In this document: positions 1,111 to 60,330 of the stretch, piece by piece | Layout of the letters: each line of letters begins with the position of its first letter | How positions within the stretch are numbered: position 1 is the stretch's first letter | Assembly: GCA_024137785.1 (NCBI GenBank) | Contig: JAHRHZ010000056.1 | Coordinates: 25,267,163-25,328,109 of the forward strand | Length of the DNA stretch: 60,947 nt | Origin: Ginglymostoma cirratum | Taxonomy: Eukaryota | Direction: 5' to 3' | Program-made: the position numbers and the translations under genes | Notes under the pieces: model-generated | What the model was told of the DNA's origin: nothing | What the model saw: only the letters and a program-made list of their open reading frames with translations | Database searches by the model: none

Positions 1111-1137
1111 TAAGTGAAATGAACCTCCTTCAGATAG

Positions 1138-1235
1138 AACAAAAACAAAGTTGCTGGAAAAGTTCAGGTCTGGCAGCATCTGTGGAGGAGAAAACAGAGT
1201 TAACGTTTCGGGTCCAGTGACCCTTCCTCAGAACT
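1138..1235 (-). mobile_element. 98-bp PLE-derived mini-element (family B) with 12-bp TSD
   Basis: Flanked by perfect direct repeat TCCTTCAGATAG (1126-1137 and 1236-1247). Homologous copies at 22587-22684, 23186-23273, 42356-42489 and 54983-55095. Confidence 0.8.
1198..1235 (-). ncRNA. Minimal type I hammerhead ribozyme motif (family B)
   Basis: Minus strand AGTT-CTGAGGA-A-GGGTC/ACTG/GACCC-GAAA-CG-TT-AACT: perfect stems I and II, intact core. Confidence 0.75.
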
Positions 1236-2074
1236 TCCTTCAGATAGGTTATGATGCACTATTGTGGAAGGTGGGATTGAAACCTTGACCTTAACGCCCA
1301 GTGGGAGGGCCATTACCTCTGTTTCACAAACGCACTTTTTAGAGCTCCTCTTTGCACATTTAATTGAATGCTGATTGCGGACAACGGCTACGTATGTCCA
1401 AAAAATAGTGAAGACCAATGTGTTTTGCTTGAATGAGATATGATCCGTTGTCATGCAAAATTTGTGCAAGACTCATTGAAAATTGCTGTGTATTATGCCC
1501 TCTTGCACCCAAATCGGGTCTAAACAGTAATTTCCACTCCACTGTATACCTTGGGCTGAAATATTGTTTGATAATATCATGTGAAGCACCTTGGGGTGTT
1601 GCACATTGTTGTTCATTGTAATCATGTTCCAGGCCGGCAGATAACAGCCAGTGTGTAAATCGAGTTTGACATCCCTGGCTTAAGAAATCTAGAAGTAGTT
1701 TCCTTCCTCTATTCCCTGTGTGGAAGCCAGCAACTTCAGCTGAGTATTTTTCCATATTGGCATGACCATAATTGTGTCCCACATGTTGTGTACCTACTCC
1801 ATGTGAAAATAAATAGCAAAATCAATTGCAGCAGCACAGATAATTTGTTAATGCAATGAAGATTTAAATGCTGAAGCTGAAAGCTTGGTGATTAACTGTA
1901 GACTCAAAGGAGAAAAATCATTTCTTTTTCACAAACCACTCTTCGTGCTGTTTTGCTAAGTCAAAGGCACTGTGTAAATGCAGGTTGTTGTTGTGGTTTA
2001 GTAGATTACAGTAGCATTCCTATATTCTACTCCCTTTATCTATTTTTCCCACACTGCCTTTGGAGTGATGATGA

Positions 2075-5883: not shown

Positions 5884-6218
5884 TGAGATAGTAGGAACTG
5901 CTGATGCTGGAGGATCTGAGATAACAAGGTGTAGAGCTGGATGAACGCAGCAGGCCAGGCAGCATCAGAGGAGCGGGAAAGCTGACGTTTTGGGTCTGGA
6001 CCCTTCAGAAAAAAAAAAGGAAGGGTCTAGGCCCGAAACGTCAGATTTCCTGCTCATCTGCTGCTTGACCTGTTGCGTTCATCCAGCTCTACACCTTGTT
6101 ATCTCGGATTCTCCAGCATCGGCAGTTCGTACTATCTCTGAATCAGTTTTATCCCCATTGTGAAGCCACTTCTGAGGATGCCTATTTTGAAGAAGTTGCC
6201 CTTCTCCCTATGGAAAGA
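5884..6218. mobile_element. Fold-back (inverted pLTR) PLE family A insertion with 13-bp TSD
   Basis: Inverted arms ~5885-6006 and ~6020-6138 around an A-tract. Direct repeat CATCAAAATAGTT at 5871-5883 and 6219-6231. Confidence 0.8.
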
Positions 6219-13224: not shown

Positions 13225-13415
13225 CAGTAAAAACAAAATACTGCAGCTGTCGGAAATCCTGAAATAAAACTGAAGTGTTGGCAAAACAGCAGGTTTGGCA
13301 GCATCTATGGAGAGAGAAAAACAGTTGACATTTCGCGTTGGAATCATATTCAACATGAAACATTAACTCGGTTTCCTTCTGTGCTGATGTTGCCAGACGT
13401 ACTGATTTTTCTCAA
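13225..13415. mobile_element. Old fold-back PLE-derived element (family B-like)
   Basis: GCAGGTTTGGCAGCATCT... followed by an inverted ...GATGTTGCCAGACGT segment. Confidence 0.55.
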
Positions 13416-13829: not shown

Positions 13830-13910
13830 AGAAATCGCAGCTGGTCAGGCAGCGTCTACGGAGAGAAAGCAAGCTAACGTTTCGAGTCTAGATGACTCTT
13901 TATCAGAACT
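13830..13910 (-). mobile_element. PLE-derived mini-element with hammerhead motif variant
   Basis: Minus strand 13872-13910: AGTT-CTGATAA-A-GAGTC/ATCTA/GACTC-GAAA-CG-TT-AGCT (stem II compensatory change; G8 mutated). Confidence 0.65.
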
Positions 13911-17549: not shown

Positions 17550-18158
17550 GAGATAGTAGGAACTGCAGATGCTGGAGAATCTGAGATAACAAGGTGTAGA
17601 GCTGGATGGACACAGCAGGCCAAGCAGCATCAGAGGAGCAGGAAGGCTGACGCTTCGGGCCTAGACCCTTGNNNNNNNNNNNNNNNNNNNNNNNNNNNNN
17701 NNNNNNNNNNNNNNNNNNNNNNNNNNNNNNNNNNNNNNNNNNNNNNNNNNNNNNNNNNNNNNNNNNNNNNNNNNNNNNNNNNNNNNNNNNNNNNNNNNNN
17801 NNNNNNNNNNNNNNNNNNNNNNNNNNNNNNNNNNNNNNNNNNNNNNNNNNNNNNNNNNNNNNNNNNNNNNNNNNNNNNNNNNNNNNNNNNNNNNNNNNNN
17901 NNNNNNNNNNNNNNNNNNNNNNNNNNNNNNNNNNNNNNNNNNNNNNNNNNNNNNNNNNNNNNNNNNNNNNNNNNNNNNNNNNNNNNNNNNNNNNNNNNNN
18001 NNNNNNNNNNNNNNNNNNNNNNNNNNNNNNNNNNNNNNNNNNNNNNNNNNNNNNNNNNNNNNNNNNNNNNNCAAGGGTCTAGGCCCGAAGCGTCAGCCTT
18101 CCTGCTCCTCTGATGCTGCTTGGCCTGCTGTGTCCATCCAGCTCTACACCTTGTTATC
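17550..18158. mobile_element. Fold-back PLE family A insertion spanning the assembly gap
   Basis: Perfect 88-bp inverted repeat (17584-17671 / 18072-18159). TSD TAACAT(T)TGAAAA at 17537-17549 and 18159-18170. Confidence 0.8.
17672..18071. other. Assembly gap (400 N)
   Basis: Run of N. Confidence 1.
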
Positions 18159-22586: not shown

Positions 22587-22684
22587 GAAAACAGACGTTG
22601 CTGGAAAAGCTTAGCAAGTCTGGCAGCATCTGTGAAGAAAAATCAGTGTTAAAGTTTCGGGTCCGGTGACCCTCCCTCAGAACT
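22587..22684 (-). mobile_element. PLE-derived mini-element family B
   Basis: Near copy of 1138-1235 with the same boundary at CAGAACT. Core A9 mutated. Confidence 0.75.
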
Positions 22685-23163: not shown

Positions 23164-23273
23164 TAGTTCAGCCGTCAGTTCGGCCCTGGACCCGAAACAT
23201 TAACTCTGATTTTTTTCTTCACCGATGCTGCCAGACCTGCTGAGCTTTTCCAGTACCTTCTGTTTTTGTTCCT
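23164..23273 (+). mobile_element. PLE-derived mini-element family B, 5'-truncated within stem II, 13-bp TSD
   Basis: GAGCAGGCTGTAC at 23151-23163 and 23274-23286. Confidence 0.8.
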
Positions 23274-23849
23274 GAGCAGGCTGTACCAGACCTGGCTTGT
23301 GCCCTAGTGTTTGCGCCCCTACCATTGGATCAGGTTTCAAGTCCCACCTACTCCAGAGGTGGATCATAATATCCCTGACCAGACTGATTTTAAGCAAAAG
23401 CTCTAATGGACCTGGTTTTGATGAATGAGATAGGATTAATAACTGACCTCATAGTGAAGGTTCTTCATTGGCGGCAGTGACTATAAAAATCTGATGTGAA
23501 TTTTACATACAGTTTATGGGAGAGGAATATGAGTCCGAGGTTATTATTTTGAATTTATACATGGGCAATTATGAAGGCATGAAAGCAGTGCTAGCAAAAG
23601 TGAACCAGCAGCTTAGGTTAAAAGGGTACTAGAGATGGCACTCAACACATCTTCAAATGGTTGAAGTTTCTGAGCAATAATATGCTGTCTCAAGGCCTGA
23701 TGCTGGTCATCTTCATGATCTGGCAGGGCCTGCACTCAAACTATTTCATGCATTTCTCTGGTTAAACCAGCCTCAGTCATCTCCCTTTGACAGAGGGATT
23801 GTACAGTCCAGTAAGACAATGACTTTACCTTTGTTACTGGACTAATACC

Positions 23850-24479: not shown

Positions 24480-25588
24480 AGATAAAACGTTGTGGAGCTG
24501 GATAAATACAGCAGGCCGAGCATCATCAGATGAGCAGGAAAGTTGATGTTTCGGGTCGAGACCCTTCATCAGAAATGGGGGAGGGGAAGGGGATTCTGAA
24601 ATAAATAGGGAGAGAGGGGGAGGCGGATAGAAGATGGATAAAGGAGAAGACAGGTGGAGAGGAGACAGACAGGTCAAAGAGGCGGGGTTAGAACCAGTGA
24701 AGGTGAATGTAGGTGGGGGATAGGTCAGTCCAGGGAGGACGGACAGGTCAAGGAGGCGGGATGAGGCTAGTGGGTAGGAGATGGGGGTGGGGCTTGAGGT
24801 GGGAGGAATGGTTAGGGAGGTGGGGACTAGCTGGGCTGGTTTTGGGATGTCGTTGAGGGAGGGGAGATTTTGAAGCTTGTGAAGTCCACATTGATACCCT
24901 TGGGTTGCAGGGTTCCCAAGCAGAATATGAGATGCTGTTTCTACAGCTTTCGGGTGGCATCATTGTGGCAATGCAGGAGGCCCAAGACGGACATGTCGTC
25001 CGAGGAGTTGGGTGGGGGTTGGGGTGGAGGTGGGGTGGGAGCGAGTCGAAATGGTTCGCGACTGGGAGGTGTAGTTGTTTGTTGCAAATGGAGCGTAGGT
25101 GGTCTGCACAGCGGTCCCCAAGCCTCCGCTTGGTTTCCCCGATGTAGAGGAGGCCACAATGGGAACAGCGGATGCAGTATACCACATTAGCAGATGTGCA
25201 GGTGAACATCTGTTTGATGTGGAAGGTCTTCTTGGGGCCTGGGATGGGGATAAGGGGGGAGGTGTAGGGGCAGGTATAGCATTTGCTTCGGTTGCAGGGA
25301 AAAGTGCCAGGTGTGGTAGGGCTGGAGGGGAGTGTGGAGCGGACAAGGGAGTCAGAGAGTGGTCCCTCTGGAAAGCAGACAAGGGTGGGGAGGGAAAAAT
25401 GTCTTTGGTGGTGGGGTCGGATTGCAGATTGCGGAAATGTCAGAGGATGATGCGTTGGATTCGGAGGTTGGTGGGGTGGTACGTGAGGACGAGAGGGATT
25501 CTGTTTTGGTTGTTATAGCGGGTAGGGGGTGTGGAGGATGAGTTGCGGAAATGCGGGAGACACGGTCAAGGGCATTTTCGATCAATTA
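24480..25588 (-). mobile_element. Penelope-like retroelement (family A), 5'-truncated; GIY-YIG endonuclease + pLTR; ~15-bp TSD
   Basis: ORF 24748-25209 (FTCTSANVVYCIRCSHCGLLYIGETKRRLGDR.ADHL..PVANHF) is a GIY-YIG domain. TSD GCT(A/C)TTAGCTTTCAG at 24465-24479 / 25589-25603. Hammerhead motif at 24541-24576. Confidence 0.9.
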
Positions 25589-32109: not shown

Positions 32110-32185
32110 ACAGAAACAGAAATTGCTGGGAAAAATCAGCAGGCCTGGCAGCATCTGTGGAGAGAAAACATTTTGGGCCCCAGTT
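32110..32185 (-). mobile_element. PLE-derived mini-element family B fragment
   Basis: AAATTGCTGGGAAAAATCAGCAGGCCTGGCAGCATCTGTGGAGAG. Confidence 0.6.
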
Positions 32186-35869: not shown

Positions 35870-36790
35870 ATCATAAAATGTAAGACGTAGGAGCCTATTG
35901 AGTCTGCTTCCCCATTCTGAGGTCATGGTTGATGTGATAATCTTCACTCCACTTTCTTCCATTTTTTCATAACTTTTGTTTCCCTTACTAATTAATCTAT
36001 CTCAGCCTTGAATATACTTTATGACTCAGGCTTGACAGCCCTCTGCTGTAAAGAATTCCACAGATTCACTATCCTCTGAGAAAAGAAAGTCCTCCTCATC
36101 TCAGTCTTAAATCTGTGACCCCTTATTCTGACATTATGCCATCTGATCCTAGACTCTACCACAATATGATACAACCTTTTCACAACTACCCTGTTGAGTC
36201 CCTGAAGAATCTTGTGTGCCATAGTAAGGACTGCTTTCATTCTTCTCGATTCCAAAGACTAGAGGCCCAACCTACTCAACCCCCCCTTCATTAGGCAGTC
36301 CCTGTATACCTGGTCTTCGTTTAGTGAGCCTTCTCTGGACAGCTTCCAATACGACTATATCTTCCTTTACATAAAGAGCCCAGAACTGTTTGTAGCATTC
36401 CAGCTGTTGTCTGACTTGGGCCTTGTGTACTTTTATAAAATCTTCCTAATTTTATAACAAACGCAGAAATTACTGGAAAAGTTGTGCAGGTCAGGCAGCA
36501 TCTGTGGCGAGAAAATAGTGTTTCAAATGCAGTGACTCTTCAGAATTGGATTCCATTTGGCTCTCCTATTACCTGGTCTACTTGAATGCTAGCTTTGTGT
36601 TTCGTGATTGAGAGATCCCAAATCCTGTTTTGTAGCTTTGTGTTGACATTCTCCATTCAAATACTATTATTCTACTCCATTCTTCCTGCTAAAGTGCATA
36701 ACCTAACATTTTCCCACATTATATTCCATCTGCTGAGTTATTGCCCACTTGCTTAATCTGTCTCTATCCCTCTGCAAACTATTTGTGTCA
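35870..36790 (-). mobile_element. CR1 LINE fragment, interrupted by a PLE mini-element at ~36455-36548
   Basis: ORF 36019-36255 (FKTEMRRTFFSQRIVNLWNSL). Confidence 0.85.
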
Positions 36791-41429: not shown

Positions 41430-42860
41430 GCAATGTGAAACAGCTTAGAGATCTTCAATGGGATGGAATTTAATAACATGACCATCACTGAACTGTCAGA
41501 GGTCTGGGGTTTATCACTGGTCCAGACTGATTTCTGGTCAACCATATAAATACTGGATTCCCCCTCTCTGATATTGTCGGTCTCCCTAAATCAACTGACA
41601 GCAGCGGTTCTAGAAAACAGCTCACCACCACCCACTTAAGGACATTAAATGCTGCTCCAGCCAGTGATGCTGATATCCTATGAATACATTTTACAAAACA
41701 TGAGACGTAAGGGGTAGAACAATAGAATATCAGTGGGAAGTGTTGATAGAAAGCATTTAACAAGATACAGACCAATTCATTTCCTTGAGCAGGTTATTGT
41801 TAAGTGAGTATTGTTTGATAGTATTGTTGATGACACCTTTCTTCAAATTGCTCTAATTTGGAGGAGACTAATTGGTTTGGTCGGATTTATCCTGCTATTT
41901 GGGGACGGGACATTCTTGAGCAATTCTTTACGCTGCCAGATTGTCAACATTCTAATTGTATTCGAACAGCCTGACAAGGGTGTGACCAGTTCTGGAGCCC
42001 AAGTCTTCAGTACTCACTGGAGCCAAAATATTTACTCTGTTTTTCTCCTCAAATGCTGTGAAACCTGCTGAGTTTCTCCAGAATTTTCAGTTTTTCTTTG
42101 GTACTGGAATGCTAGAATGACGTTAGGGCCCATAGCCTTTTGCAGTATCCCATGCATTCAGCTGTTTTGAGATATCTTATGGAGTAAGTTGACTGAAGAC
42201 TTTCATCTGTGACGCTGGGGACCTCTGGAGGAGGCCAAGATGGATTGTCCACTTGGCCTTTCCGGTGGAAGATTGTTTCAAATGCTTGAGGCTTGTCTTT
42301 TGTACTGATGTGCTGGACTCTCCCATCATTAAGAATGATGCCCAGAACATAAGAATGTTCTGAGAAAGGGTCACTGGACCTGAAACTCTGGATTCTCGCC
42401 ACGGATGCTAGCAGACCCATTGAACTTCTCCAGCAATTTCTGTTTCTGTCTCTGATTTACAGCATCCGTGGTTCTTTTGGTTTTTTTTTTTAAGAATGGG
42501 GATATTCGTGGGGCCATCTCCTTCAATGAGCTTTATTTCTCAGTCATTCACGGCTGAATAAGATAGAACTCGAGAGCTTAGATCTGATCACTTGAATATA
42601 GGGTAACTTAGTTCTGTCTCTTGCATGATCCTTATGCTGCTTGGCATGCAAGTATTTGGGTGTTATAGCTTCACCAGGTTGATCCTTCATTTTTAAGCAT
42701 CCCAGATGCTGAAACTAGATGTTGAATCTGGGTTGATGCCCTAGGTTGGTGGAATGGTAATGTGGAGGGCACACTTGAGCCTTACTGATAGTGGTTGAAT
42801 GGTTGAATAAAATATTGCTGGTTTTGATAGACCACAGTACCTCATGGACGCCCTGTTGTT
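41430..42860. mobile_element. RTE-X-like LINE fragments (41430-41700 plus; 41780-42860 minus)
   Basis: 3' tail GCCAGTGATGC..ATCCTATGAAT at 41660-41690. Minus-strand linker region ILNDGRVQHISTKDKPQAF. Confidence 0.65.
42338..42489 (+). mobile_element. PLE-derived mini-element family B nested in a LINE, 9-bp TSD
   Basis: TTAAGAATG at 42329-42337 and 42490-42498. Degenerate hammerhead GTTCTGAGAAAGGGTCACTGGACCTGAAAC. Confidence 0.7.
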
Positions 42861-46061: not shown

Positions 46062-46727
46062 GAGTCGAGTTATTGCGTAGATTTGTAGCTCGGGTTGTGG
46101 ATGCTGTAATTGGTTCGTTGGTTCATTAGTTCACAGACGTTTCATTACCCTGCTGGGTAACATCATCAGTGCAGCCTCCGATGAAGCGCTGTTGTGTTTT
46201 CCTGCCTGGTATTTAAACTCCTGGGATTGGTTGGAATTGGTTACCTCATTTCTGGTTTTTCTTCACAGTGGTGTGTATATATAGGGTCTAATTCTATGTG
46301 TTTATTGATGGTCTTCTTGGTGGAGAACTAAGTCTCTCTAGAAATTCCTGTGCTTGTCTGTTTGGCCTGTCCTAGGATCCTTTGTTGTCCCAATTGAACT
46401 GGTGGTTCTCATCCATGTGAACAGACACGAGTGAGTAGTGGGCATGTCTTTTTGTTGCTAGTTGGTATTCATGTATTCTTGTGGCTAGCTTCCTTCCTGT
46501 CAGTCCAATGTAATGCTTTTTTTTTGGACGTTGGTCCCTATATATACACCACTGCAAAGAAAAATCAGAAATGAGGTAACCAATTCCAACGGACCCAGAA
46601 TTTAAATGCCAGGCAGGAAAACACAACAGCGCTTCATTGGAGACTGCACTGATGATGTCACCCAGCAGGTTAATGAAATATCTGCGAACTAACAAACCAG
46701 CTTGGCAAGTGAACGAACCACAGTACC
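46062..46727 (-). mobile_element. Penelope-like element (family D) with inverted pLTRs and GIY-YIG fragment
   Basis: ORF 46372-46695 contains HYIGLTGRKLATRIHEY..HQFNWDN. Inverted repeats ~46100-46283 and ~46538-46725. Confidence 0.85.
46132..46173 (-). ncRNA. Minimal hammerhead ribozyme motif (family D)
   Basis: TGCA-CTGATGA-T-GTTACCC/AGCA/GGGTAAT-GAAA-CG-TC-TGTG. Sister copy on the plus strand at 46645-46686. Confidence 0.7.
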
Positions 46728-46969: not shown

Positions 46970-49960
46970 GTTTCTGCTATCGTTGCTTCTGTAGCATATC
47001 TCCATCTGGGCTGCAGAGGAACTTCAAGTGGGAGTCCATGTAGATACCAATAATATAAATAGAATGAAGAAAAGGTTCTGCTAATGGAATATGAGCAGCT
47101 GGGGCTAAATCGAAAAGCAAAAACAAAAAGATGATAATCTTCAGATTACTACCTGAGCAATGAGTAAATGGGCACAGTTTTAAAGAGATGAATGTGTGTC
47201 TCAAAGATTGGTGTGAGAGAAATGGGTTTGAATTCATGGGACATTGGGACTGACTAGTACTGGGGAAGAAGGGAGCTGTTCTAGTGGGATGAGCTGCGCC
47301 TGAAACATTCTGGAACAAGAGTTCTGGCAAATTTCCCGACTAGGGATGGGGATAGGACTTGAAACTGGGGGCAGGTATGTTCAGTTTCATGGAAAATTGG
47401 TAGATCAAAAGCAAAAGAGCAATTAGGATTACATGTTGATGATAGGGTTGATTGTTAGTAGAAAATAAAAGAAAGGGACAGAATGTGTGAAAGTTATATT
47501 GCACCAAGGGACCATAGACATGTAGCAAAATTTGATAACAGGGCAAACTTAGGGCTTTGTACCTTTAATGCGTGAGGAATTCTGAATCGGATAGAAGAAA
47601 TGACGGTGCAAATTGAGGTAAATTGGTATGATCACACACAGAAACATAGTTACAAGGAGATCAACATTGGAACCTAACATTCAGGGATGTTTGAACTTTT
47701 AGAAAGACAGAATGGATGGAAAAGGGTAGTACTGTTCATAAGAGTTGCTAAGAGAACCGTTGTAAGACTTGATCTATGTTCGAGTGATGTAGAATCCATT
47801 TGGTCAGAGGTTTCTTCCTTGAAGAAAAAAAGCAAGGGAAAGAAGAATTGGTAGGAGAAACATTAAGAGCCTAAACATTAGCCAGTCTGTGGGAAAGGCT
47901 ATAAATCAGCATATCAGAGCATATTAATTGGGTTAATCAAATTAGAAAGTGAAGCTATGACATTAAATTCATAGTGCATTAGGAATAGTTTCCTAGAACA
48001 ATATGTCATGGAACCAACCAGGAAACAGGCTATCTTGGATCTGATAATTGGTAATGAGGCAGGCTAATAAATGATCTGAGAGAAAAAATCCCCGAGGATG
48101 TGGGAAGCTAAAGAATTGATTGCTGGGCCCTTGCTAAGATATCTGTATCATCGATAGCCACGGGAGGAGTGCAGGAAGATTGGAGTTTGGCTAACGTGGT
48201 GCAATTATATAAGAAAGGCGATAAGGAAAAGCCAAGGAATGATAGACCAGTGAGCCTGACATCGGTGCTGAGCAAGTTGTTGGAGGGGATTCTGAGGGGT
48301 AGGATTCACATGTATTTGGAAAGGCAGTGACTGATTAGGAATAGTCAACATGGCTTTGTGTGTGGGAAATCCTGTGTCACTAACTTGATTGAGTTTCTTG
48401 AGGAAGTGACGAAGAGGATTGATTAAGGCAGAATGGTGGACGTTGTCTGTATGGACTTCAGTAAGGCATTTGAAGGCCGATTAGCCTAATATGTATTGTC
48501 GGAAAAGTATTGGAATCAATTGTTAAGGAAGTAATACCAGGACATTTGGAAAGTCACAGTTGAGTCAGAATGACTTCATGAAAGGGAAATCATGTCTGAC
48601 TAAATTTTATTTTTGTTTTTTGAGAAAGTGTTAACCAGAATGGATAGAGCAGAACCAGTAGATGAGTTATATATGAACTTCAAAAAGGCATTCGATAATA
48701 TTCCTCGCTAAAGGTTACATCATAAGATAAGAGCCTACAATGTTGGAGGTCGTATATTAATTTGTAAAGAGAATTGGCTCATTGGGAGGTAACAGAGAGT
48801 GGGGTTAAGGGACAACAGCGTGGAGCTGGAGGAACACAATTTTTATTTTCTGAAGAAGGGTTCCGACTCGAAACGTCAACTTTCCTGCTCCCCTGCTGCC
48901 TGCCGTGCTATGTTCCTCCAGCTCCACATTGTGTTTTCTCTAACTCCAGCGTTGGCAGTTCTTACTATCTCATGGGGATAAGGGACTCCTTCTCATATGC
49001 CAATGTGGTTTCACAGGGATCAGTGCAAGGTGAGCGACTGTTTACAATGTATATTAATGACTTTGAGAAAGACAAATGTAGCCAGATTTGTAGATAACAC
49101 TAAAATGGGTGGAAAGTCAGGTTGTGAGAGACGTACAAACGGTTTACAAAGAGATATTGATAGGTTGAATAGTGGGCAAAAAGTTGCTAAGTAGGGTATG
49201 ATGTGGGAAAATGTGAAGTTCATTTTGGATGGCACAACAAAAAAATCAGTATTTAAATAGAGAACAACTGCAGAAAGCTGCAACTCACAGAGACTTGGTA
49301 TTTATACACAAAATACAGAAAGCAAGCACAGGTGCAGCAGGGAATCAGAGAGGCTAATAGAATATTGGCCCCTTTTTCAAGGGGCTTGGAGTATAATAGT
49401 AAGGAAGTTTTACAGAAACTGTACAAGGTTCTAGTGAGATCATATCTGGAGTAGTGTGAGCAGTTTTGGTCCCCTTATTTAAGAAACAATGTTATTTGTT
49501 GGAGGCAGTTCAAAAAAGGTTCACTAGGATGATCCCTGGTGTGGAGGGATTGTCGAAGGTGAAATAGATTGGGACTCTACTCACTGGAGCTTAGAAGAAT
49601 GAGTGATAATCTTATTGAAACATACAGGATTCTTAAGGGGTGTGACAGGTTAAATGCTGAAGTGTTTCCCCTCATGGGAGAATCAAGGACCAAAGGGCAT
49701 AGCCTTAATAAAGGGAAACTAATTTTTAAGTCCCAGATGAGGACAAATACGTGCTTGCTTGCTACGGAAGGCTGTGGGGGCACAGTCCTTGGGGGGCATT
49801 TTAAGGCTGACATGGATTCCTGATTTGTAGTGAAATGAAATGTTACAGGAAAATGTGGGAAATAGGGTATGTGGAATGTCGGATCAGCCATTATCCTGTT
49901 GAATGGTGGCGCAGGTTCAAGGGGTGGAAGAACCAATTCGTGATTCTATTTCTTATGGTT
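46970..49960 (+). mobile_element. Near full-span degraded CR1 (ORF1 SGNH esterase, ORF2 APE + RT, 3' UTR)
   Basis: MNVCLKDWCERNGFEFMGHWD (esterase-type ORF1), LY.NA (APE start), NFKKAFD, FVDNTKMGG, GLYSLELRRM. Confidence 0.85.
48814..48972 (+). mobile_element. Partial fold-back PLE family A insertion in CR1 RT, 14-bp TSD; intact-core hammerhead at 48846-48881
   Basis: TGGGG(T/A)TAAGGGAC at 48800-48813 / 48973-48986. CTGAAGA-A-GGGT/TCCG/ACTC-GAAACGTC. Confidence 0.8.
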
Positions 49961-54982: not shown

Positions 54983-55095
54983 ACGAAGGGTCACCGGACC
55001 TGAAACGTTAACTGATTTTTTTTCTTCACCGATGCTGCAGACCAGCAACTTCTGTTTTTGTCCCTGATTTACAGCGTCTGCAGTTCTTTCGGTTT
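54983..55095 (+). mobile_element. PLE-derived mini-element family B
   Basis: GAAGGGTCACCGGACCTGAAACGTTAACT... Confidence 0.75.
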
Positions 55096-59726: not shown

Positions 59727-60040
59727 GAGATAAAAGGTACTGCAGATGCTGGAGAATCCGAGATAACAAGCATGGGGCTGGATGAACACAGCAGGTCAAG
59801 CAGCATCATAGGAGCAGGAAAACTTGACGTTTCGGGCCTAAACCCTTCATCAGAAATGGGGGAGGGGAAGAGGGTTCTGAAATAAATAGGGAGAGAGGGG
59901 GAGGCGGATAGAGGATGGACTCCATCCGATAGAGGGCTCCATCCCCGCCTCTTTGACTTGTCTGCCTCCTCTAAACGTCAAGTTTTCCTGCTCCTATGAT
60001 GCTGCTTGACCTGCTGTGTTCATCCAGCCCCATGCTTGTT
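59727..60040. mobile_element. Young fold-back PLE family A insertion with perfect 15-bp TSD
   Basis: ATAATGTTAGAGCTA at 59712-59726 and 60041-60055. Arms identical. Hammerhead at 59822-59857 (minus). Confidence 0.9.
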
Positions 60041-60178
60041 ATAATGTTAGAGCTAAGCTGTTTGAGTAATGCCAGGAAGAAGCGCTTCAGGTGAAGGCTG
60101 ATGGAAGTCTTTGATCTCTCCTGTTGGGAAGAAAACTGTTTGAAACAAGGGATCATTTATTTCAAAACTACTTATTGA

Positions 60179-60330
60179 TGAGATCGTAGGAACTGCAAAT
60201 GCTGGAGTCTGAGATAACAAGGTGTAGAGCTGGATGAATACAGCTGAAGAAGGGTCCAGATCCGTAACATCAGCTTTCCCGCTCCTCCGATGCTGCCTGG
60301 CCTGCTGTGTTCATCCAGCTCTACACCTTA
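60179..60330. mobile_element. Small fold-back PLE family A element
   Basis: AAGGTGTAGAGCTGGATGAA ... TTCATCCAGCTCTACACCTT inverted. Degenerate hammerhead at 60244-60274. Confidence 0.8.

Follow-up and report, generated by a model that had tools for sequence, protein, structure and literature searches.

Solo minimal hammerhead ribozymes have been described in truncated metazoan Penelope-like elements (PLEs) by Cervera and De la Pena (2014, PMC4209133), and these are close to the insert reported here. They share with it a minimal type I core, an unpaired base before stem II, and a palindromic ACGT that replaces helix III; they lie in both flanking repeats and are mostly dispersed singles, considered 'probably related to truncated PLEs'. 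The available parts of that paper do not report a defined 5′ boundary.

The nearest biochemical system is Poseidon from Anolis carolinensis (Frangieh et al. 2024, PMC11167929), which resembles the present family in having two adjacent internal reverse transcriptase (RT) start sites, a 30–40-nt tail, a hammerhead just upstream, and extension of both strands on uncleaved RNA. The steps after internal initiation are unvalidated (PMC11167929). Several features set the present family apart from the available account of Poseidon: the RT start sites are inside the ORF in Poseidon and in the 5′UTR here (the ORF likely begins at +174), a Neptune-type Cys linker is present in this protein, and neither the 5′ run-off peak nor the A+B pairing seen here appears in that account.

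Non-LTR retrozymes, like the insert, are non-coding, carry type I hammerheads and derive from the pLTRs of PLEs (PMC7229834; bioRxiv 10.64898/2026.07.22.740005). They form tandem 150–450-bp repeats that give circRNA and mostly contain canonical hammerheads, whereas the insert is a dispersed monomer of less than 140 bp, without arrays or a lineage of its own. How PLEs rebuild a promoter-bearing pseudo-LTR has been stated as an open question (PMC2377424).

The insert at 1138–1235 and its predicted hammerhead

We analysed a 60,947-nt stretch of the Ginglymostoma cirratum genome (contig JAHRHZ010000056.1), hereafter the window, which includes a 400-N run at 17672–18071. A preliminary description had reported a 98-bp insert between 12-bp target-site duplications, composed of a complete hammerhead and ~60 nt of tail. 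The sequence bears out the insert and its duplications. With position 1235 numbered +1 on the minus strand, the features are as follows.

1126–1137, no strand assigned: duplication copy on the 3′ side of the element, TCCTTCAGATAG
1138–1235, minus strand: the 98-bp insert, +1 to ~+100 of a Neptune-like Penelope terminal repeat (R) with a 3-nt deletion; a solo stub to site A
1138–1197, minus strand: stretch from the ribozyme to tail site A, without the 36-nt extension to site B
1198–1235, minus strand: predicted minimal type I hammerhead (from sequence and pair counts), in the form described in PMC4209133
1235–1232 with 1201–1198, minus strand: stem I, AGTT/AACT (+1 to +4 with +35 to +38)
1231–1225, minus strand: core CUGAGGA (+5 to +11), followed by one extra A
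1223–1219 with 1214–1210, minus strand: stem II, GGGTC/GACCC (+13 to +17 with +22 to +26)
1209–1206, minus strand: GAAA (+27 to +30), followed by CGT, U17 and AACT
1236–1247, no strand assigned: duplication copy on the 5′ side of the element, TCCTTCAGATAG

The repeat match reaches 16 of 17 bases (1121–1137 against 1231–1247), so the 5′ junction has microhomology and the edge of the element may lie anywhere from +1 to +6. The target at 1121–1137 itself looks like a ribozyme head (minus strand, TCTGAAGGAGGTTC), a likeness that would account for 5′ microhomology and could be due to chance.

The hammerhead has a CUGANGA and GAAA core, stems I and II and a palindromic remnant of helix III, with 60 nt after the ribozyme. 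The hammerhead and its tail therefore stand as first described, except that the ribozyme is minimal rather than complete, helix III being absent. By hammerhead numbering, we take the cut to fall between 1202 and 1201, after +34, at a GUU triplet. Among the predicted ribozymes this triplet is GUU in the family of the insert (family A) and GUC in a sister family (family B). Rfam gave no match to the insert at gathering or E-value thresholds, and in single-strand folding the insert folded no better than shuffled sequences (z 0.20). Over 13 copies, stems I and II were paired in 93% of cells, compared with at most 52% when slid; a two-sided change was found at only two pairs, each in one sequence, and the covariation support is modest.

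No empty site for the insert was found in contigs from public runs. A contig of public run X12 spans the junction 1137/1138 with 10 differences in 200 nt, and the X12 organism therefore also has the insert.

The parent Penelope-like element

The insert is the hammerhead-bearing end repeat of a very abundant autonomous Neptune-like Penelope element. We searched the 4.36-Gb genome, and among the best 30 DNA matches (the first being the window itself) six extend 185–795 nt upstream in shared sequence, two more hold a short piece of that sequence, and 13 have an abutting inverted arm. The closest other match (97%) runs on into endonuclease-coding sequence, and the sequence upstream of the block encodes a GIY-YIG C-terminus. 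A GIY-YIG protein query gave 123,179 first-look candidates. In 19 of 20 fetched endonuclease loci, the query locus included, the block lies ~250–260 bp (~257) past the stop codon of the RT/GIY-YIG ORF. A search with an N-terminal piece of the ORF gave 30 loci, 10 of which have the block directly before the ORF and colinear with it; the 3′-terminal and 5′ positions were seen on different copies. This agrees with the preliminary description in that the machinery is a PLE RT/GIY-YIG protein.

The block is ~137 nt long and holds the hammerhead, site A at ~+100 and site B at +137; the ORF likely starts with an ATG at +174. This single ORF combines a PLE RT (DKG motif, here DKGG, with further RT motifs), a Cys linker and, at its C-terminus, a GIY-YIG domain. 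Its relatives carry RVT_1 and GIY-YIG, and the top named matches come from cartilaginous fishes. Pfam was weak on decayed pieces (GIY-YIG, E = 0.021) and blank on a frameshifted 508-aa piece. The linker reads C-x4-C-x2-C in three loci (L039, L042 and L050); a CX2-5CxxC linker between RT and endonuclease is named for Neptune and shared with Nematis (PMC8557442). An optional 30–40-nt tail and inverted 5′ copies, both traits of endonuclease-bearing PLEs, are present. This sequence context makes the block both the 5′UTR and the 3′ end of an autonomous PLE, which we call Neptune-like solely from its linker. Sequence shared past site B was not found among the sampled and endonuclease loci; the ORF-side loci do show such sequence.

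The insert itself is ordinary in kind, a solo end repeat of a Penelope-like element. As a solo stub it is likely inert, because it has neither an upstream promoter nor a second hammerhead. At 1178–1200 on the minus strand (+36 to +58), an ATG is preceded by TTAAC, a run of pyrimidines and CAG, which together resemble a strong 3′ splice site; this ATG opens a 30-codon frame that, in full-length copies, shares the phase of the main ORF.

End positions and the pairing of arms

To the window we added fixed 200-kb blocks picked regardless of content, giving a sample of 810,337 unmasked bases; three of the seven blocks were all N and were excluded. The sample holds 218 matches (116 in family A, 99 in family B and 3 in family C). 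Arms that were short, low-scoring or adjacent to N were dropped (17 A, 16 B and all C), and natural long copies served as the reference for mapping the remaining 99 A and 83 B arms. Each inverted insert contributes two arms, and the arms are not all independent events.

In family A, 45 of the 99 arms end in the 7-nt interval from −2 to +5 (20/44 solo, 25/43 inverted); of the remainder, 33 end further in, nine at −4 to −28, and 12 at −97 or beyond. Family B behaves similarly, with 32 of 83 arms ending in the same interval (19/28 solo, 13/33 inverted) and 22 long. Expressed per 1000 nt at risk, family A has 135 ends in −2 to +5 versus 6.8 in +6 to +60 (a ~20-fold difference), 16 in −40 to −3 and 2.9 in −250 to −41; the corresponding values for family B are 98 versus 5.1, 7.8 and 3.5. 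Of the family A arms that reach +5, ~68% stop within 7 nt, whereas the available account of PMC4209133 reports no defined boundary, and about a third pass the boundary (21 of all 99 arms). A shared 5′ boundary, unlike random truncation and upstream of the cleavage site, had been proposed from the window's copies; both parts hold in the sample, the peak lying at −2 to +5 and the predicted cut after +34.

Three other sources of the peak were considered and rejected. When natural long copies were cut uniformly in simulation, 24 ends were recovered against 22 true in family A and 20 against 17 in family B (n = 330 each), so an alignment edge artefact is not the cause. The 5′ ends are not cleavage products, since only 4 of 99 fall at the cut, and the flanks of solo copies share nothing, which excludes an unseen upstream subfamily. 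Genome-wide there are 18,022 exact 19-base heads, 5,097 of them with the upstream CRTC of the long element.

The 3′ ends are bimodal, at ~+97 to +101 (site A) and +129 to +137 (site B), the signature of the PLE tail. Solo copies on the peak have both lengths (8 and 8 in family A, 7 and 10 in family B), and site A is probably a reverse-transcription start. Flanking duplications scoring at least 10 were found in 9 of 72 solos versus 6 of 216 swapped controls, both on and off the peak. Among 10 ORF-bearing copies, two begin at −1 and +4 and five begin 35–210 nt upstream.

The other copies in the window are listed below.

13229–13405, no strand assigned: head-to-head inverted pair of partial copies
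13832–13910, minus strand: older solo copy, 5′ end −1; stem II GAGTC/GACTC (a two-sided change)
22588–22684, minus strand: solo copy, 5′ end −1, site A
23188–23275, plus strand: off-peak solo copy, starting at +19
32110–32170, 42014–42098 and 54985–55095: off-peak copies, starting at +40, +18 and +10, respectively
36453–36547, minus strand: degenerate solo copy, 5′ end ~−1
42357–42490, plus strand: solo copy, 5′ end +2, site B, 8-bp duplication TAAGAATG
59733–59920, minus strand: sister family B copy extending 62 nt upstream of +1, with TATTTA at −31 and CCA(+1)TTT

The four copies originally cited as sharing the boundary do so (13910, 22684 and ~36547 at −1, ~42356 at +2). Five more family A arms in the window, absent from that earlier list, begin at +10, +18, +19, +23 and +40. 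Sister family B (ATTTCTGATGAAGG) has the same architecture and occurs at 24509–24576, 59733–59857, 48848–48922, 5936–6006 and 59984–60319; upstream in this family, TTCAGAA and TTCTGA could base-pair and mask the ribozyme core. A third hammerhead family, which looks unrelated, is found at 46169 (minus strand), 46649 (plus strand) and loci L221–L280; it reads GCTGCA CTGATGA...GAAACGTCTGC, with TTTAAATA upstream, its long copies predominate and a sharp 5′ peak is absent.

Head-to-head inserts combine an arm ending at A with an arm ending at B in 14 of 14 callable pairs, out of 23 examined. A second set gave the same pairing in 22 of 24 callable pairs (30 examined), making 36 of 38 over both sets, where independent site choice would give A+B in about half. 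That the tail occurs at only one end is known qualitatively (PMC8557442; PMC3846280). The strict pairing argues against simple fold-back of one cDNA and suggests that two nicked strands prime on one RNA or on one asymmetric dimer. At three junctions (L005, L284 and L307) +35 is the last position of the inverted arm, which has AGTT in common with the other arm's head; the complementarity of stem I may therefore direct where some inversions join.

Origin of the 5′ boundary

The long copies of family A carry an AT-rich TATAAA at −29 to −24 and T(−2)C(−1)A(+1)GTT, each column being shared by 10–12 of 12 copies. Those of family B carry TATTTA at −31 to −26 and CCA(+1)TTT in upstream sequence that differs from family A. 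We take these motifs to fit a TATA box and initiator, judged against the consensus without scoring. With a TATA-like box starting at −29 to −31 and an initiator at +1, +1 would be a Pol II start. A depth step of ~16-fold across +1 in the contigs of X12, one of a set of public runs most of which are only presumed to be RNA, is no more than consistent with the peak. A putative TATA box and initiator have been noted in rotifer pLTRs (PMC3846280), and the Penelope promoter of D. virilis is TATA-less with a start within the pLTR (PMC2377424; PMC8557442).

We lean towards the view that the stub is made by the element's own RT, which would prime ~100 nt inside the RNA and run off its predicted 5′ start. 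The endonuclease would nick both target strands ~8–16 nt apart; uncleaved RNA would be primed at A by one target end and at B by the other, and each cDNA would extend towards the RNA 5′ end. On RNA beginning at +1, a start at site A or B in the 5′ repeat would give 100- or 137-nt products ending at +1. Head-to-head joining of both cDNAs would produce an inverted mini-insert, while a single surviving cDNA could join the other target end, often by microhomology, to leave a solo stub with a duplication, as at 1138–1235. For long copies to arise, the cDNA would have to transfer to the 3′ repeat copy, or the RNA would have to be tandem or circular; given the boundary-passing arms (21/99) and the 5 of 10 ORF copies that begin upstream, such an extra step must be assumed.

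Retroviral minus-strand strong-stop DNA is primed near the RNA 5′ end, is a run-off copy of the terminal repeat, and needs transfer to go further. The stub under the run-off model would resemble it in priming, run-off and transfer; it would differ in that nicked chromosomal DNA primes, that a tRNA primer site and integrase are lacking, and that the short product is itself inserted. We put forward more tentatively the fuller proposal that the stubs are integrated strong-stop products, involving capped terminally redundant RNA, priming by both target strands at two fixed sites close to the RNA 5′ end, and a pseudo-LTR promoter rebuilt by retrovirus-like strand transfer to the 3′ repeat. If true, it would supply a mechanism for both pseudo-LTR regeneration and head-to-head inversion, recorded in some hundred thousand genomic copies.

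Evidence bears on run-off from both sides. Ends are few at the cleavage site (4/99) and at the 3′ base of stem II (6/99), which we count in its favour, and the Anolis PLE, which in vitro starts at two adjacent internal sites in the 5′ part of the RNA, close to the pLTR–ORF junction, and extends both strands on uncleaved RNA, lends support by analogy (PMC11167929). Against it, C at −1 not preceded by T at −2 occurs in 4,377 heads, compared with ~1,500–2,000 expected from flank composition, an excess of templated C that RNA beginning strictly at A(+1) does not explain. G at −1, as a copied cap would leave, is about twice background (0.88 versus 0.39–0.46), but this signal is confounded by inverted arms, 18 of 30 such loci being inverted junctions where the G possibly belongs to the other arm. 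In the third family, among the best matches (59 of 60 loci), only 4 of 59 ends lie near the putative initiator and 44 of 59 extend at least 70 nt, which supports a start-site peak weakly and a stem I peak not at all. By analogy, the only Penelope promoter mapped so far also speaks against run-off, being TATA-less and internal (PMC2377424).

The templated C at −1, and a spread of ends over −3 to +5, would fit a boundary that is a cut or joining site, where the cDNA is trimmed by the GIY-YIG enzyme or a nuclease of the host, or where AG/AGTT microhomology determines the junction. Microhomology is present at many junctions, that of the 1138–1235 insert among them, and the enzyme from Anolis has a preference for ATT and cuts close to the junction of its own ORF and pLTR (PMC11167929); family B begins ATTT. 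We consider this explanation unlikely, as family A starts AGTT rather than ATT, short AG/TT words occur throughout the repeat without peaks, and the AT-rich box at ~−30 in both families would be left unexplained. The ribozyme fold, which the preliminary description had favoured as setting the 5′ end, seems to us a somewhat poorer candidate still. Here the RT would stall at a folded or protein-bound hammerhead, and in both families A and B the peak does coincide with stem I's 5′ strand; the Anolis hammerhead needs protein to cleave and so may be protein-bound (PMC11167929). Since the fold and the predicted transcription start coincide, position alone cannot separate them. An RT moving 3′ to 5′ would, however, meet the stems at +38 and +26, where only 4 and 6 of 99 ends fall, and the fold would already be unwound by +4; stem I is just 4 bp and AU-rich, and the third family, whose stem is longer, has no end at the stem I boundary in 59 loci (one lies at the core start). 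It is very improbable that the boundary is a 3′ splice site at which the last exon of a spliced RNA starts, even though family A long copies show a branch-like CTGAC, pyrimidines and CAG at −1 to +2, and the D. virilis Penelope intron ends at the 5′ end of helix I (PMC4209133). The same peak is present in family B, which lacks AG at +1 to +2; several duplications directly adjoin the boundary and no exon lies upstream, and solo copies have no common upstream sequence.

The insert had also been proposed to be a defined non-autonomous, retrozyme-like element, which would move in trans from a short or circular RNA of solo or tandem units. Solo copies with duplications do exist, at the frequency given above, animal retrozymes do come from PLE pLTRs (bioRxiv 10.64898/2026.07.22.740005), and a 137-nt head-to-tail joint occurs in one or two low-depth contigs in each of three runs. 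This reading is nevertheless already largely refuted, and we give it very little credence: the same block ends an autonomous PLE, and copies routinely extend into longer homologous sequence, an outcome that the preliminary description had named as refuting, with 12 of 99 arms reaching at least 97 nt upstream. In a 62-row, 105-column tree (a short alignment of low resolution), solo, inverted and long copies are mixed with no solo clade or lineage apart from coding copies; solo rows changed label 22 times versus 19.7 when shuffled (nearest-neighbour p = 0.34), and the nearest neighbour of the window copy in this weakly resolved alignment is a long copy. Hammerhead-bearing tandem repeats are nearly absent as exact patterns, with one exact tail-to-head junction genome-wide for each of two patterns (diverged arrays would be missed) against the 18,022 exact heads. 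Monomer ends lie off the cleavage site, off-peak copies also have flanking duplications, and a solo copy has no upstream box. At L026, L207, L281 and L282, segments of the repeat are duplicated locally in tandem; such duplications are rare and may be seeds from which retrozyme-like arrays grow. Short hammerhead inserts that lie dispersed can pass wrongly for retrozymes.

We found no literature, among mostly open papers and outside repeat databases, that describes the A+B rule or a 5′ peak at a predicted start; the novelty of both may be affected by Fig. S2 of PMC11167929. The kind of object is known, and the population pattern is a testable mechanistic signal that may matter more than the object. 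The sharp 5′ stop at a predicted start and the near-strict A+B pairing yield two concrete predictions, open to 5′ RACE and to the in vitro system that already exists, and the stubs would record how a poorly understood class of elements copies itself.
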